Shown: positions 1 to 8,190 of the stretch, one piece after another | Layout of the letters: the number at the start of each line of letters is the position of its first letter | Numbering within the stretch: the stretch's first letter is position 1 | Source of the DNA: a virus | Taxonomy: Duplodnaviria > Heunggongvirae > Uroviricota > Caudoviricetes | DNA length: 9,289 nt | Reading direction: 5' to 3' (one strand) | IMG/VR virus record: IMGVR_UViG_2537561823_000013 | Translations under genes and position numbers: made by a program | Notes under the pieces: model-generated | The model's database searches: none | Told to the model about the DNA's origin: nothing | The model's input: the letters and a program-made list of their open reading frames with translations, nothing else

Positions 1-1242
1 ATGGCACGAAAAACCACCCCACTAACTATTACGGAGATCAAAAACGCACGACCAGGGGAAAAGGAATATACCCTGCAGGATGGCGGAGGATTATTTCTTC
101 TGGTGAAGCCCTCCGGATCAAAAATCTGGCGTTTTACGTACTACCGTCCGGCAGATAAAAAACGGACTATTATCAGCCTTGGATCGCTAAATGATGTTTC
201 CCTGTCTGATGCCAGAGAGCGACGGAATGAATACAGGTCACTCATAGCAAAGGGAACTGACCCACAGGACTACGAACGCCGGAAACGTGAAGCAGAGAGC
301 AGGAAAAAGGGCAACACGTTCGAAAAAGTTGCCTTGGACTGGTACGAGATGAAAAAAGGCCAGAATCTGGCTTACAACACGATTAAGGATATCTGGCGAT
401 CCCTGGAAAAATACGTATTCCCGTACATCGGAAACACGCCAATAGATCCCCTCACCGCTCGCCGCTTTGTTGAGATACTCACACCCATTAAAGCACGCGG
501 CAACCTGGAAACTCTGAAACGCGTTTTACAACGCATCAATGAAGTGATGGATTTTGCTGCCAACAGTGGGCTGATTGACATCAACACCGCCGCGAACGTC
601 CGCAAGGCATTCCCTTCCCCCACTAAAAAGCATATGCCAACCATCCGACCGGAACAGCTACCGCAGCTAATGCACGATTTATCGGTCGCCAGCATAGAAC
701 GGCAAACCAGATTGCTAATCGAGTGGCAACTGCTGACCGTAGCACGCCCAGCCGAAGCAGCCGCCGCACGCTGGGAAGAAATAGATCTCGATGCCGAAAC
801 ATGGACGATTCCAGCCGGACGCATGAAGATGCGCCGTGACCATGTGATCCCTCTTTGCGGTCAGGCGATGGCTGTACTGGAAACAATGAAGCCAATCAGC
901 GCACACAGGGAACATGTTTTTCCCAGCCTTAAAAATCCAATGCTGCCAATGAGCAGCCAGACCGCTAACGCTGCATTGCGCCGGATGGGATACGCTGGTG
1001 TGCTGGTGTCTCACGGATTACGCGCCATATTCAGTACAGCAGCGAACGAGGAAGGATTCGAGCCGGACGTAATCGAGGCCGCACTCGCACACGTGGACAC
1101 GAACGAGGTAAGGCGAGCATATAACCGAAGTAACTACCTGGAAAAACGTGTAGTACTTATGCGCTGGTGGGGTGAATTTGTGGAAGCCGCAGCAACCGGA
1201 GTGACCATAGCCAGTGGTAAAAGGGGTATCCGTGCGGTGTAA
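1..1242 (+). CDS. int: P4-family tyrosine integrase (site-specific recombinase), apparently complete
   Basis: 413 aa ORF. N-terminal arm-binding region (TLQDGGGLFLLVKPSGSKIWRFTYY, SLSDARERR) is typical of P4-type integrases. C-terminal catalytic region has HGLRA (His-x-x-Arg) and RRAYNRSNYLEKR with the presumed catalytic Tyr. Opposite-strand ORFs inside it were rejected. The att site would lie upstream, outside the window. Confidence 0.9.
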   Translation: MARKTTPLTITEIKNARPGEKEYTLQDGGGLFLLVKPSGSKIWRFTYYRPADKKRTIISLGSLNDVSLSDARERRNEYRSLIAKGTDPQDYERRKREAESRKKGNTFEKVALDWYEMKKGQNLAYNTIKDIWRSLEKYVFPYIGNTPIDPLTARRFVEILTPIKARGNLETLKRVLQRINEVMDFAANSGLIDINTAANVRKAFPSPTKKHMPTIRPEQLPQLMHDLSVASIERQTRLLIEWQLLTVARPAEAAAARWEEIDLDAETWTIPAGRMKMRRDHVIPLCGQAMAVLETMKPISAHREHVFPSLKNPMLPMSSQTANAALRRMGYAGVLVSHGLRAIFSTAANEEGFEPDVIEAALAHVDTNEVRRAYNRSNYLEKRVVLMRWWGEFVEAAATGVTIASGKRGIRAV

Positions 1243-1355: not shown

Positions 1356-1598
1356 ATGGTCTGGCACGAAAAATCATCCAATGTCTGCGGTGAAGGGCTG
1401 CAACTGGCGTTAATGGCAAATCGTGAATTCTGGTCAACATACGATCCGGAAGACAAATCAACAGCCCCCACAAAACACGAGGTAGTCAGTTTTTTACGCT
1501 CGCGTGGCGCATCGAAAAATCTGGCTGAAAGCATCGACAAGGTGCTGAGGCCCACCAGCCTTAAATGTGGTGGGCGACCTAAGAAGTGGAAACGGTAA
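1356..1598 (+). CDS. hypothetical small basic protein (80 aa), ends GGRPKKWKR
   Basis: Open frame followed 6 nt later by a convincing intrinsic terminator. No clear Shine-Dalgarno upstream and no recognisable family, so coding status is uncertain. Confidence 0.3.
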   Translation: MVWHEKSSNVCGEGLQLALMANREFWSTYDPEDKSTAPTKHEVVSFLRSRGASKNLAESIDKVLRPTSLKCGGRPKKWKR

Positions 1599-1603
1599 TC
1601 ACA

Positions 1604-1634
1604 ATAGCGGCCCCTTGCGGTCGCTATTTTTTTG
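1604..1634 (+). terminator. rho-independent terminator (hairpin plus T-run)
   Basis: Stem atagcggcc (1604-1612) pairs with ggtcgctat (1619-1627), including one G-U pair, loop ccttgc, followed by tttttttg (1628-1634). Confidence 0.55.
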
Positions 1635-1666
1635 CAAAAAGAAAGCGTAATCAATGAGATAAAAAA

Positions 1667-1698
1667 CAGTGAGTACCGTTTTAAAACGGTGAGTACTG
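1667..1698 (+). promoter_or_regulatory. candidate operator upstream of alpA: perfect 16-bp palindrome with flanking direct repeats
   Basis: ACCGTTTTAAAACGGT at 1675-1690 is its own reverse complement. GTGAGTAC occurs at 1669-1676 and 1689-1696, embedded in cAGTGAGTAC / cGGTGAGTACtg. It sits between the terminator and the alpA start. Confidence 0.4.
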
Positions 1699-1767
1699 TT
1701 TTTCCCGCCCTGCCCTGTTTTACCGTATTTACCACCGGAATACGCCGGATTAACGAGGTAAAACACG

Positions 1768-1974
1768 ATGGAAGTAATCAGAAAAATTCTTACCCGTCAG
1801 GAAGTAAAAAATATTCTGCGCATCAAGGCAGACAGTTCGCTACAGGACATGATCAACGCCGGAAAATTCCCGAAAGGCTTCAAAATCGGTCTGCGCCGTG
1901 TTGGCTGGTATGAAGATGAGGTGCAGGCCTGGTTGAAAGAACGCGAGGAAGAAGCGCGCGGAACGGCTGCGTAA
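1768..1974 (+). CDS. alpA: AlpA-family (prophage CP4-57-type) HTH transcriptional regulator
   Basis: 68 aa. The motif LTRQEVKNIL...GKFPKGFKIG.RRVGWYEDEVQAWL fits the AlpA/phage_AlpA pattern. SD-like gaggt lies 7 nt before the ATG. Position directly after int is typical for PICI/P4-like islands. Confidence 0.85.
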   Translation: MEVIRKILTRQEVKNILRIKADSSLQDMINAGKFPKGFKIGLRRVGWYEDEVQAWLKEREEEARGTAA

Positions 1975-2463: not shown

Positions 2464-2769
2464 TCACTCCTGCTCTTTGGCCTTGCGACGCTGGAGTTCT
2501 TCACGCGCGACGGTGATGAGTTGCCCGATCTCCTCGGCTGCTTTGACTCCGATTTTTTCCACCTGCGCCAGTGCATCGAGCGAAGAAACCAGGGGATTTT
2601 CTCCGCTTCCTTCTGCCTGGCGGCGGGCGATCTCACCGCGAACGGCTGTAATCACGAAAGCGGCTATTGTTTCCCCTTCCGTTTTCGAATTTTCCATTTC
2701 CTCGATTACATCATGGGGGAAGCGGATATTTTTCATTTGCGATCTGCTGTTGATATTTCCTGTTGCCAT
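2464..2769 (-). CDS. ribbon-helix-helix (Arc/CopG-like) DNA-binding protein, candidate repressor, divergent from the early operon
   Basis: 101 aa on the minus strand. KNIRFPHDVIEEMEN...ETIAAFVITAVRGEIARR looks like a beta-strand followed by two helices, as in RHH proteins. Non-repetitive, charged composition. SD is weak; an alternative start is the internal Met (MKNIRF...). It lies inside the obviously spurious + strand ORF 1979-3172. Confidence 0.55.
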   Translation of the reverse strand: MATGNINSRSQMKNIRFPHDVIEEMENSKTEGETIAAFVITAVRGEIARRQAEGSGENPLVSSLDALAQVEKIGVKAAEEIGQLITVAREELQRRKAKEQE

Positions 2770-2860: not shown

Positions 2861-2893
2861 TGTACACACACCAATGATTGTGGTGTATGTACA
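2861..2893 (+). promoter_or_regulatory. 13-bp inverted repeat (one mismatch) with 7-nt spacer overlapping the predicted transcription start; candidate operator
   Basis: tgtacacacacca (2861-2873) versus tggtgtatgtaca (2881-2893). Reverse complement of the right arm is tgtacatacacca, so there is a single C/T mismatch. It lies immediately 3' of the -10 element. Confidence 0.4.
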
Positions 2894-2965
2894 GCAAAGC
2901 CCCGCAGTGCTGGAACACATGCAGGGCTTCTAACCACCAACGATAGCGAAAGTATCGAGGTAGCT

Positions 2966-3623: not shown

Positions 3624-3911
3624 ATGAAACAGAAAATTTCTGGCTTTACTGCCAGCGGCCCCGCTCGGCCTGAAATCCGCCCCGGCGATATTTTCCGGGA
3701 TAACTATGGCGGCACGGTAACGATAAAAGGCGTGGCAGAACGGCGCATCACTTACCGCCGTGATGGCTACGAATATGACTGCGTGATGCCTGTTTATCAG
3801 TTCCGGCGTGATTTCACGCTGGTGGGCCATCGTAAAGCCGTAAATCAGAAACGTGCAGCAAGTCATATCCGCAAAATTCGTGAAATGCTGGTCGCAGGGG
3901 GTAAAAAATGA
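3624..3911 (+). CDS. hypothetical protein (95 aa)
   Basis: Open frame in operon context. Its stop overlaps the helicase start (ATGA at 3908-3911). Confidence 0.6.
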   Translation: MKQKISGFTASGPARPEIRPGDIFRDNYGGTVTIKGVAERRITYRRDGYEYDCVMPVYQFRRDFTLVGHRKAVNQKRAASHIRKIREMLVAGGKK

Positions 3912-5314
3912 AACTGGCACCGAACGTAAAACTGTTACCGAAAGATAAACACACTGAGGCGGTTATTTTTGCGGGTGATAATGCTCACTCCTTTGCAGAA
4001 CATTACATGATTGCACAGGCCAAAAAAGCAGGCGATCCCATCCCTCCGGTTTACCTGGGCCGTTATCAGTTAAGCGAACTGGACAACCTGCAGATTGTTG
4101 ATGAGGGGCGATACAGGGTAACGGTGATACGCGCCGGAAATATTGACGAAGCGCAGCTGTTAACCATAGCGACAAAACTGGCGATCGCCGGAGTCCAGGA
4201 AGCGCGGCTGCTTTCTGAAAACTTCGAATTACTGGAGAAATGGACCGACCAGCTTCCACGGCTACGGGAGACATGGGAGAGAGGGGAAAGCCTGATCATG
4301 AATGGAGGAAAACAAAAAATCACGCTACCGATTTCATGGGGTTCTGAGGGATTCGACGCGCAGCAAAGCTACGTAATTAAGGGGCTTATTCCGGCTGAAT
4401 CATTATGCAGCACCTACGGGGCCAGCGGTTCTTATAAATCGTTCCTGGCTATTTCCTGGTCGTGCCATGTTGCCACAGGTATGGCATGGGGAGGCCGCAG
4501 GGTAAGTAAGGGCGCGGTTATCTATATCGCTGGCGAAGGCAGTATGGGCGTAAAACGCCGCGTTAAGGCGTGGGAGATAACCCACGACAAGGTGGTTACG
4601 GATTTGTGCATCGTTAACGCGCCTGTCTTCCCTGCATCGCCTGACTATGTGGAGCAGGTTATCAGGACCGCCGGATTAGTGCAGGACAGAACGGGCGAAA
4701 GGGTGCGGATGATTGTCATTGACACGCTGGCCCGTTGCTTTGGTGGTCATGATGAAAATGACTCCCGCGACATGGGGGCGTTTATCCAGGGGTGTGACGC
4801 GATAAAGCAGGCCACGGGGGCCACGGTTCTGGTTGTGCATCATTCCGGCAAGGATGAGACGAAAGGGGCGCGGGGTTCCAGTGCATTCCGTGCGGCGCTT
4901 GATGCTGAGTTCCGAATCAGTCGGGAACATTCAGAGGCTACGGCGCTGGTTGCAGCATGTACGAAGATGAAGGACGCGGAGGAGCCAAAAGAAAGCGCCT
5001 ACGACCTTAAGAGCGTGGAGGTATTTACGGATCCTGAGGGTGAAGAAATCGTGTCCATGGTGGTGATTGACGTTCCCCGCGCCCCTGCTGAACTGGAGCG
5101 CATAGAGGAGGCCGGGAACAAGACGGAAAATCACACGGCTTTATGGGGTTGTATCCGGTCACGTATACAGCATGGTGATAAATGCACGATCCCGCTGCTA
5201 CGTGATGACATGAAAAAGCTGGGATATGACACAAAACACCTTAAACGATGGTTAGCCAAACTGGAAAAAGACGGCGTGATTTGCGTCGATGGGGATGATG
5301 TTCACCCACTGTAA
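3908..5314 (+). CDS. RepA-type (RecA-fold, AAA_25-like) replicative helicase / replication initiator with C-terminal putative DNA-binding domain
   Basis: 468 aa. P-loop-like TYGASGSYKSF, Walker B RMIVIDTLARCF, and VLVVHHSGKDETKGARGSSAF typical of the RepA/DnaB-like plasmid and satellite helicase family. SD aggggg sits about 9 nt upstream. No zinc-finger or Toprim primase signature was seen in the N-terminal 150 aa. Confidence 0.85.
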   Translation: MKLAPNVKLLPKDKHTEAVIFAGDNAHSFAEHYMIAQAKKAGDPIPPVYLGRYQLSELDNLQIVDEGRYRVTVIRAGNIDEAQLLTIATKLAIAGVQEARLLSENFELLEKWTDQLPRLRETWERGESLIMNGGKQKITLPISWGSEGFDAQQSYVIKGLIPAESLCSTYGASGSYKSFLAISWSCHVATGMAWGGRRVSKGAVIYIAGEGSMGVKRRVKAWEITHDKVVTDLCIVNAPVFPASPDYVEQVIRTAGLVQDRTGERVRMIVIDTLARCFGGHDENDSRDMGAFIQGCDAIKQATGATVLVVHHSGKDETKGARGSSAFRAALDAEFRISREHSEATALVAACTKMKDAEEPKESAYDLKSVEVFTDPEGEEIVSMVVIDVPRAPAELERIEEAGNKTENHTALWGCIRSRIQHGDKCTIPLLRDDMKKLGYDTKHLKRWLAKLEKDGVICVDGDDVHPL

Positions 5315-5514
5315 AAAGTGGGCGTTAAAAGTGGGAATAGTGGGTAATTTAACTGGAATTTAACAAAATCGCCCACTTTCCCACGTGTATACATCCCAAA
5401 AAGTGGGCACTAAAAAAATTCTTATGAAACAGTACGATATAAAACCACAAAATCCCAGGTGGGACGAAGTGGGAAACCATGAAAAGTGGGTAGAAAAAGT
5501 GGGCACAGGTGGGC
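5303..5514. repeat. iteron array with AT-rich spacer; candidate replication origin
   Basis: Core (A)AGTGGG(N) occurs as direct copies starting at 5316, 5329, 5338, 5401, 5457, 5467, 5484, 5497 and 5507. Inverted copies (CCCAC) are at 5303-5310, 5371-5378 and 5379-5384. An AT-rich stretch at 5409-5456 separates the two clusters. The array begins inside the last codons of the helicase gene. Confidence 0.65.
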
Positions 5515-7806: not shown

Positions 7807-8190
7807 ATGCAGAATCATTACAATGACCTTAAGCCAATTGCCGAAATGATGTATCCGGATCCAGCAGTAGAGGAATTAAAGGCTATTGCTGACAAAATGC
7901 GTTTAAGTGAACGCCTTGTTGATATGAATCAGGTGATGGAACTTACTACCCTTAGCCGTCGCACATTGCTAAACCTTGAGGCTCGTGGAGAGTTCCCCGA
8001 ACGCGTACAGGTTACGGAAGGGCGTAAGGCCTGGTATTTAAGTGAAGTGATCGACTGGATAAACAATATTCCTCGAGCTTCTGAATATTGCCGCGTACCT
8101 GTCCCCAAAAAGCCAGATGCGGCGCTATGCCTCAAGATTGAGCGTGTACGTCGCAATGCACGGGATGGTCGCTATAAGTTGATTGGTTGA
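7807..8190 (+). CDS. AlpA/Xis-like HTH domain protein with N-terminal extension (second AlpA-like gene in the element)
   Basis: 127 aa. MELTTLSRRTLLNLEARGEFPERVQVTEGRKAWYLSEVIDWI fits the AlpA-family HTH pattern, preceded by about 40 aa of unrelated sequence. SD agggggat lies 5 nt upstream. It sits between the decoration gene and cos. Confidence 0.7.
   Translation: MQNHYNDLKPIAEMMYPDPAVEELKAIADKMRLSERLVDMNQVMELTTLSRRTLLNLEARGEFPERVQVTEGRKAWYLSEVIDWINNIPRASEYCRVPVPKKPDAALCLKIERVRRNARDGRYKLIG

Follow-up and report, generated by a model that had tools for sequence, protein, structure and literature searches.

Two abutting 20-bp dyads upstream of alpA, in a phage satellite of Escherichia coli, probably constitute a protein-binding control site of this gene; the probability of this reading is put at about 0.7. 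The perfect 16-bp palindrome ACCGTTTTAAAACGGT, which the first-pass annotation had singled out here, can be read in the sequence exactly as described, and is the seam of the two dyads, each of which would accommodate one dimer.

The window, that is, the whole analysed stretch of 9,289 nucleotides, is a segment of a ~10 kb satellite of the PICI type located in the E. coli chromosome between tRNA-Pro (by yejM) and yejO. An IMG/VR contig (UViG_2537561826_000014) and a segment of E. coli strain 504239 are both identical to it, and in the chromosomal locus L001 tRNA-Pro lies 210 bp upstream of int. The integration zone has the composition that characterizes PICIs, a tyrosine integrase at a tRNA or att site followed downstream by an AlpA-family gene in the same orientation. 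The remainder likewise combines a replication module with late genes but no tail genes (helicase, SSB, capsid, decoration and terS within ~10 kb, the range for PICIs being 8-15 kb). This gene order (Table 1) matches the four-zone layout known for Gram-negative PICI satellites (PMC10111431). The identity assigned to alpA in the first-pass annotation is borne out by a profile match, and the palindrome does lie in the gap between a terminator and this gene. The intergenic region upstream of alpA is found in 374 of 5426 complete E. coli genomes (~7%), O111:H8 and Nissle-type strains being examples of carriers, and in at least 45 IMG/VR contigs, and an AlpA profile search of genome contigs returned, among the matches listed, only distant relatives from Acidobacteria and Alcanivorax.

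Table 1. Features of the island and of the alpA control region, with positions in the window
Feature	Position	Strand	Description
P4-type integrase (int)	1-1242		PF00589 and arm-binding domain
orf80	1356-1598	+	80-aa orphan ORF, ends at the terminator; hypothetical protein in RefSeq
Intrinsic terminator of the int-orf80 transcript	1603-1634	+	10-bp stem, 6-nt loop, T7 run
Unit 1, imperfect 20-bp dyad	1663-1682		AAAACAGT-GAGT-ACCGTTTT
Reported palindrome	1675-1690		junction of the unit 1 right arm with the unit 2 left arm
Unit 2, dyad	1683-1702		AAAACGGT-GAGT-ACTGTTTT
Dyad pattern in half-site form			AAAACNGT-N4-ACNGTTTT
Arm-substituted form of the unit 2 arm AAAACGGT (hypothetical variant)			AAAATTGT
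Spacer	1704-1718		fixed length, variable sequence; between unit 2 and the next conserved block
Fifth half-site-like element	1719-1730	+	TTTACCGTATTT; contains -10-like TACCGT (1721-1726)
Direct repeats, 10 bp each (CCGG box)	1733-1752	+	CACCGGAATA / CGCCGGATTA; CCGG-N6-CCGG
alpA RBS	1757-1761		GAGGT, by sequence reading
alpA	1768-1974	+	68 aa; PF05930, E 5.6e-9; phrog_66
YlcI/YnfO RHH-like gene	2464-2769	-	one of two reverse genes after alpA
Icd-like gene and DUF4222			downstream of the reverse genes, before the helicase
RepA-type helicase	3908-5314		
SSB, major capsid, head decoration, second AlpA-like HTH gene, terS			downstream of the helicase, in that order

Several further elements of the island were recorded. 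The second AlpA-family gene is longer (127 aa, 7807-8190; PF05930; phrog_2790, E 2e-48), separates the head-decoration gene from terS, and is carried by a minority of related islands only. Directly after the repA stop codon, the 18-bp direct repeats AAAAAGTGGGCRYTAAAA at 5313-5330 and 5398-5415, 85 bp apart, are candidate replication-origin iterons. Upstream of the Icd-like gene, the block 2832-2894 consists of a near-consensus promoter (TTGACA-N16-TTTAAT) followed directly by a hairpin with a 14-bp stem (2860-2894) and resembles the PLE / CI-RNA immunity region of P4; the sole Rfam match near it is a weak one to symR (2893-2965, minus strand, E 0.22).

The dyads sit in the sole possible promoter space of alpA, since they lie between the terminator of the int-orf80 transcript and the alpA RBS (1635-1760). 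This terminator is as clean as had been claimed (stem 1603-1628 followed by the T7 run; RNA dG -14.3 kcal/mol, z -3.3), and it insulates alpA against upstream transcription. A different terminator sequence occupies the unchanged position in the sister clade. The T run and the A run that follows it form a perfect 12-bp palindrome of their own, TTTTTGCAAAAA (1629-1640), within a 17-nt imperfect inverted repeat (1622-1647). Beyond alpA, a bidirectional terminator at 2002-2048 (stem 2006-2033) is shared, at ~98% identity over 47 bp, by ~145 other E. coli genomes carrying islands that differ in other respects. The satellite EcCICFT073, which was located in CFT073 (L218) through this shared terminator match, carries the same 47 bp ~300 bp downstream of an unrelated alpA allele.

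The two copies of GTGAGTAC described as bracketing the palindrome are present at 1669-1676 and 1689-1696, but each overlaps it by 2 nt instead of simply flanking it, and they correspond to the centres of two larger units. These units are head-to-tail tandem copies of AAAACNGTGAGTACNGTTTT, reading AAAACAGTGAGTACCGTTTT (unit 1) and AAAACGGTGAGTACTGTTTT (unit 2); they are identical at 18 of 20 positions, and such a pair appeared in none of 200 shuffles. Each is an imperfect dyad of the form AAAACnGT-N4-ACnGTTTT with a 4-bp centre. Half-sites of the type AAAACNGT thus occur four times in 40 bp, as compared with 1.7 expected in the whole window, and a repeat and half-site search revealed no further copies of the unit elsewhere in the island. 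Because the centres (1672.5 and 1692.5) are 20 bp or about two helical turns apart, two dimers could bind on the same face of the helix, possibly cooperatively.

Taken alone, the 16-bp palindrome is unremarkable, because palindromes of at least this length arose in 150 of 1000 dinucleotide-preserving shuffles of the window, i.e., in 15% of them. Such a frequency would be in keeping with an element devoid of function, generated by recent tandem duplication of an AT-rich 20-bp segment with the palindrome as a chance product, as would the gain and loss of units by slippage that is seen among relatives. However, this explanation is very improbable in view of the way in which the region has diverged: the arms are invariant across clades whose synonymous sites are saturated, whereas the centres and the neighbouring spacer vary. 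The two main clades differ at synonymous sites by p-distances of 0.51-0.79 in int, orf80 and alpA, yet they share 81-85% identity over the non-coding sequence that runs from unit 1 to the ATG. In unit 2, the arms together with the following T are invariant at 17 of 17 positions and the centre at 0 of 4 (29 distinct sequences); in unit 1, 11 of 16 arm positions are invariant and again none of the four central ones (26 distinct sequences). The spacer retains 2 of 15 columns, without indels (29 distinct sequences). The invariance of TTTACCGTATTT in the 29-sequence alignment is partly by construction, and the unbiased check comes from 50 loci retrieved solely through the similarity of their AlpA proteins (66-100% identical), with 19 distinct upstream sequences among them; every one of the 50 keeps AAAACGGT-N4-ACTGTTTTT, TTTACCGTATTT and the CCGG box. 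A dyad with conserved arms and an unconstrained centre, under constraint above the neutral level, is what an operator is expected to display, and the pattern is that of a putative footprint of a sequence-specific binding site contacted through its arms.

Natural variants indicate what is being conserved. In the largest sister clade the junction of the units is imperfect (ACCGTTTAAAAACGGT), and in L095 the units are 19 bp apart and the junction palindrome is reduced to 15 bp. Unit 1 is missing from L024 and, independently and in another background, from L114, L174 and L195; these one-unit variants have an intact unit 2 and neither the junction palindrome nor a long hairpin. Since junction-imperfect, 19-bp-spaced and single-unit variants all exist, the conserved entity is the 20-bp dyad. 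The alignment across related islands called for by the first-pass annotation therefore gives a divided answer: the dyads, above all unit 2, are kept, but the 16-bp palindrome is not. Both the junction palindrome and unit 1 are dispensable; unit 2 would be the primary binding site, and unit 1 a weaker, auxiliary one. The L113/L131/L168/L199 lineage bears a symmetric double change within unit 1, which in L199 is a perfect 18-bp palindrome. L095 (strain 2013C-3033) also has a ~400-bp insertion between orf80 and the dyads, with four GTTTTGAGACAACAT repeats (L095 2060-2200), and a Rha-family gene after alpA.

The same symmetry could act in RNA or as a cruciform. If transcribed, 1662-1703 would fold into a long hairpin followed by U5, which might serve as a second terminator or attenuator before alpA. 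The predicted stability is high (RNA dG -17.4 kcal/mol, z -5.2, with 0 of 200 shuffles as stable), and a terminator scan lists 1674-1691 as terminator-like. The variants nevertheless make this explanation quite improbable. Unit 1 varies one-sidedly while unit 2 is fixed, so that mismatches arise in L022, L113, L131 and L168 without compensatory changes, and the fold is lost in one-unit islands (L024, dG -6.8, z -0.7). Covariation counts cannot separate the pairing schemes, as all four half-sites are the same motif and only one symmetric double change is informative. The base of the stem is moreover A-U, with the U run belonging to the stem itself, and a canonical terminator already stands 30 nt upstream. 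An Rfam search returned nothing in the dyad region. Thus, 1662-1703 is stable yet behaves unlike an intrinsic terminator or attenuator.

The idea that a dimeric regulator gates alpA from this place retains its core, given the dyad anatomy and the strong purifying selection in the alpA control region, although the junction variants remove the 16-bp palindrome as its unit. Among the binders then proposed, the RHH protein (YlcI/YnfO) is unlikely: it is undetectable in ~20 contigs in which both units are present, and in the others its identity varies between 29 and 100% with unit 2 unchanged, and the co-occurrence and covariation expected of an RHH operator and its protein are not seen. SOS control, considered at the same time, is unlikely as well. 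The alpA upstream region contains no match to the LexA box CTGT-N8-ACAG, nor even to the relaxed form CTG-N10-CAG, and alpA induction has been published as SOS-independent (PMC6092414). The Ogr/delta site TGT-N12-ACA, which at late promoters lies near -55, has no match on either strand of 1599-1767, and consensus sites for LexA, Ogr/delta, CII, CRP, IHF, DnaA, sigma-54, Fis and the lambda operator half-site gave no matches. Arm-type sites of Int were considered and rejected, as the repeats by attL and attR are TAGCTAYACGTTWAGCTATACG doublets (TAGCTAYA) and no AAAACNGT is present in the att-proximal regions. In the att flanks of L001 (12660-12740 and 23040-23070), the sequence upstream of int and that close to the distal end of the island contain doubled TAGCTACACGTTTAGCTATACG and TAGCTA repeats akin to it; they are probably integrase arm-type sites, like the doubled motif of HE-PICIs (PMC10111431). 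Antitermination of the Pseudomonas aeruginosa AlpA type was also set aside, that AlpA being larger, with at least 8 helices and a Q-like fold, and not comparable with the 68-aa protein (PMC9371919). AlpA, the RHH protein and Int arm binding are disfavoured as occupants of the dyads.

The promoter served by these sites would be intrinsically weak. In agreement with the first reading, a promoter search of 1200-2900 found nothing resembling a sigma-70 promoter, and a PWM scan that took in relatives of the window lineage gave weak candidates only. The alpA promoter region has no -35 element and only weak -10-like hexamers. By eye, distant lineages share a core before alpA composed of a weak -10-like hexamer (CAACAT, CAATAT, AACTAT or TATTAC in related lineages, TACCGT or TATTTA in the window), the CCGG box and the RBS, and upstream of this core each lineage has repeat or dyad modules of its own. 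L206 and L207 combine an identical AlpA and a near-identical core with unrelated upstream modules and dyads. The shared pattern points to transcription starting at about the CCGG box, near 1733, and TACCGT could then be read as the -10 element; TTACCGT is also present ~50 nt before alpA in L096-L099. The CCGG-N6-CCGG box is situated at -33 to -36 from the alpA ATG in 14 of the 21 loci listed, including loci whose AlpA is 52-75% identical, and L022 has three copies of its 10-bp repeat. With a predicted RNA hairpin of dG -6.0 (z -2.6), it is a candidate AlpA site or 5'-terminal mRNA hairpin. A different small hairpin is found in L096-type islands where the CCGG box would be.

AlpA itself could be thought to bind the ACnGTTT half-sites, of which there are five including that at 1721-1729, and to activate its own promoter from them. 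Positive feedback of AlpA on its own promoter is known for EcCICFT073 (PMC6092414) and EcCIMP1 (PMC11773190). Within the window TACYGTWTT (family D2) occurs in three copies of one orientation, and three upstream regions with no other relation to each other all have an ACCGT element at a distance of 46-57 nt from alpA. Yet the protein is a 68-aa winged helix of the excisionase type, and such winged helices usually bind direct repeats as monomers, not 20-bp dyads. L096-L099 lack the dyads although their AlpA is nearly identical in helix and wing, and L206 and L207 join different upstream modules to one and the same AlpA. Furthermore, no other copy of the unit is found in the island, though AlpA must act elsewhere, and the CCGG 10-bp direct repeats, which track AlpA across lineages, are the better candidate for its site. 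The PalpA promoter of EcCICFT073 also has 10-bp phased direct repeats and no dyads. Autoregulation through the dyads is therefore improbable. The int-alpA spacer of EcCICFT073 (L218 2677-2741 and 2938-2990) holds six 10-bp phased (A/C)ACAAC repeats directly downstream of int and, 30-77 nt ahead of alpA, GACACAA repeats; both are candidate AlpA or Int sites in a PalpA that has been studied experimentally.

Positive control by a dimeric activator at the dyads is the tentative preference, with odds slightly below even, and is favoured over a repressor operator; that a protein binds, where the transcript starts, whether control is positive and which protein exerts it are all inferred. The activator would be made or released only during helper-phage development. 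With a start near 1733, unit 2 would be centred near -41 and unit 1 near -61, where class II and class I activators, respectively, classically bind, and the bound protein would recruit RNA polymerase to switch alpA on. The transcript would begin at the CCGG box, with the variable 15 bp acting as the promoter spacer. AlpA would then reinforce its own expression, and the island would excise and replicate. The PLL promoter of P4, upstream of the AlpA homologue vis, provides a precedent: it is switched on by Cox and Ogr of the helper P2 or by P4 delta, and is repressed by Vis. For PICI-type islands of Gram-negative hosts, alpA is the induction switch (PMC6092414, PMC11773190). On a reporter plasmid in the laboratory strains C600 and 594, its transcription is raised by helper phages lambda and 80 without involvement of SOS (PMC6092414), and EcCIMP1 deleted for alpA still shows helper-dependent induction (PMC11773190).

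Several observations count against an activator. With TACTGT (1694-1699) or NATAAA near 1655 as the -10 element, the units would overlap the core promoter or follow it, an arrangement that implies repression, and tandem abutting dyads are the classical layout of a repressor operator. One would expect a helper regulator to possess its own sites, and none were found at BLAST sensitivity, which is blind to degenerate 20-mers, either for the region in a phage collection or for its 47-bp core in 5426 E. coli genomes outside the alpA locus. The second place per genome returned by the 47-bp search is the palindrome matching its own reverse strand. A loose 20-mer pattern gave ~75 matches in viral contigs outside the satellite, all of them unrelated metagenomic sequences of varied G+C and none in a coliphage regulatory region. 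The published reporter work, too, concerns other islands, including the dyad-free EcCICFT073. As a more specific proposal, the dyads may be the docking site of a helper-encoded dimeric factor that induces Gram-negative PICIs and is co-opted by them as Ogr and Cox of P2 are by P4. An exchangeable upstream module (small ORF and repeats) before a constant alpA core (weak -10, CCGG box, RBS) would then set the helper response of each lineage. This is conceivable, with the chances clearly against it.

A dimeric repressor at the dyads, silencing alpA by occluding or blocking a weak promoter, is the main alternative and, although unlikely, still deserves weight. It would be supplied by the host or by the island, with Orf80 as the sole lineage-specific candidate, and would be inactivated by a helper protein as in the derepression of SaPI Stl. 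The tandem layout suits operators, and if TACTGT (1694-1699) were the -10 element, the units would span -43 to -4; this placement matches the 19-20 nt that separate the -10 of a good promoter from TTACCGT in L096 and L098. The restriction of the motif to the alpA locus in the 5426 genomes, at BLAST sensitivity, also speaks for a repressor. Promoters held off in this manner are usually strong, however, and none is seen here.

The case for Orf80 as that repressor is mixed. The gene is real and under purifying selection, because pN is 0.23 and pS 0.79, and it is the sole lineage-specific island gene that always accompanies the dyads: every island with units has it, and L096-L099 have neither. This co-occurrence is weak evidence, because orf80 adjoins the units and mere linkage of adjacent elements may account for it. 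The AF2 model of the protein is a 3-helix bundle (pLDDT 76), and its sequence includes an invariant EFWSTYDPED motif and a conserved basic GGRPKKW tail. No DNA-binding homology is detectable, though, in that searches for fold, Pfam, PHROG and PDB sequence matches gave nothing significant and no phage homologue; its homologues are confined to E. coli. A diverged AlpA-like winged helix was considered and rejected on the same searches, as pairwise similarity to AlpA is not significant (E 0.25), and is kept only as a speculative candidate. The by-eye similarity of Orf80 to the C-terminus of an ORF in L206 was not recovered by BLASTP. EcCICFT073 has no ORF between int and alpA, yet its alpA is helper-inducible from a plasmid in C600 and 594 (PMC6092414), and excision of PICMI satellites requires the gene that they carry between int and alpA (PMC10803314). 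Orf80 is the positional analogue of these excision-essential genes (iolg/icg), and in more distant relatives unrelated ORFs of 200-270 aa occupy its place. A database protein annotated as AlpA family of Cooperia oncophora (P0011) joins residues 1-42 of Orf80 to residues 21-68 of AlpA; this chimera, which had prompted the winged-helix idea, probably stems from bacterial contamination in the nematode assembly with a deletion that removed the whole control region.

Comparison with known systems places the dyads between several types of control element. Helper induction and transfer with helper-raised alpA transcription are published only for EcCICFT073 and EcCIMP1 (PMC6092414, PMC11773190), and no description of a cis-element in any PalpA was found in the literature searched. 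Both of these E. coli satellites resemble the window in carrying int and then alpA in the integration zone, and EcCICFT073 also shares the downstream layout (reverse YlcI/YnfO gene, Icd-like gene, DUF4222, primase/helicase). It differs in its 62-aa AlpA allele, in lacking orf80 and the terminator, and in having 10-bp phased ACAAC/GACACAA direct repeats where the window has 20-bp dyads. As at PLL of P4, the promoter precedes an AlpA-family gene in an integrase-adjacent module and is intrinsically weak, and helper proteins would act at symmetric or repeated upstream sites; the PLE-like promoter with its hairpin (2832-2894) and the Icd-like genes are further likenesses to P4. In contrast to P4, the alpA upstream region has no Ogr/delta TGT-N12-ACA, its motif and spacing differ, and the island carries capsid, head-decoration and terS genes. 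Adjacent dyads with conserved arms and free centres, one strong and one weaker site, at the master switch of the element recall lambda OR1-OR2-OR3 and SaPI Stl, but the window dyads have neither an overlapping strong promoter nor an adjacent divergent repressor gene, and they abut with a 20-bp period. Tandem class I / class II activator sites of the CRP/FNR or LuxR type (near -41.5 and -61.5) are similar in comprising 20-bp dyads two helical turns apart at a promoter without a -35 element, with the units placed at about -41 and -61. Here the positions depend on the inferred start, and the sequence does not fit the consensus of CRP, LexA, IHF, Fis or CII.

The dyad pair is thus a putative cis-regulatory operator pair, an ordinary kind of element in front of the gene that serves a widespread family of satellites as master switch. 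The life cycle of Gram-negative phage satellites cannot start without AlpA, and AlpA alone suffices to start it. How this family is induced is an acknowledged open question (PMC6092414, PMC10803314). The dyad element makes that question directly testable: being short and invariant, it can serve as a defined bait in DNA-affinity capture and can be mutated in a defined way in reporters, and nature already supplies one-unit and two-unit alleles for such tests. Should the binder prove to be a helper protein, this would explain helper specificity and help to predict which prophages mobilise which islands.
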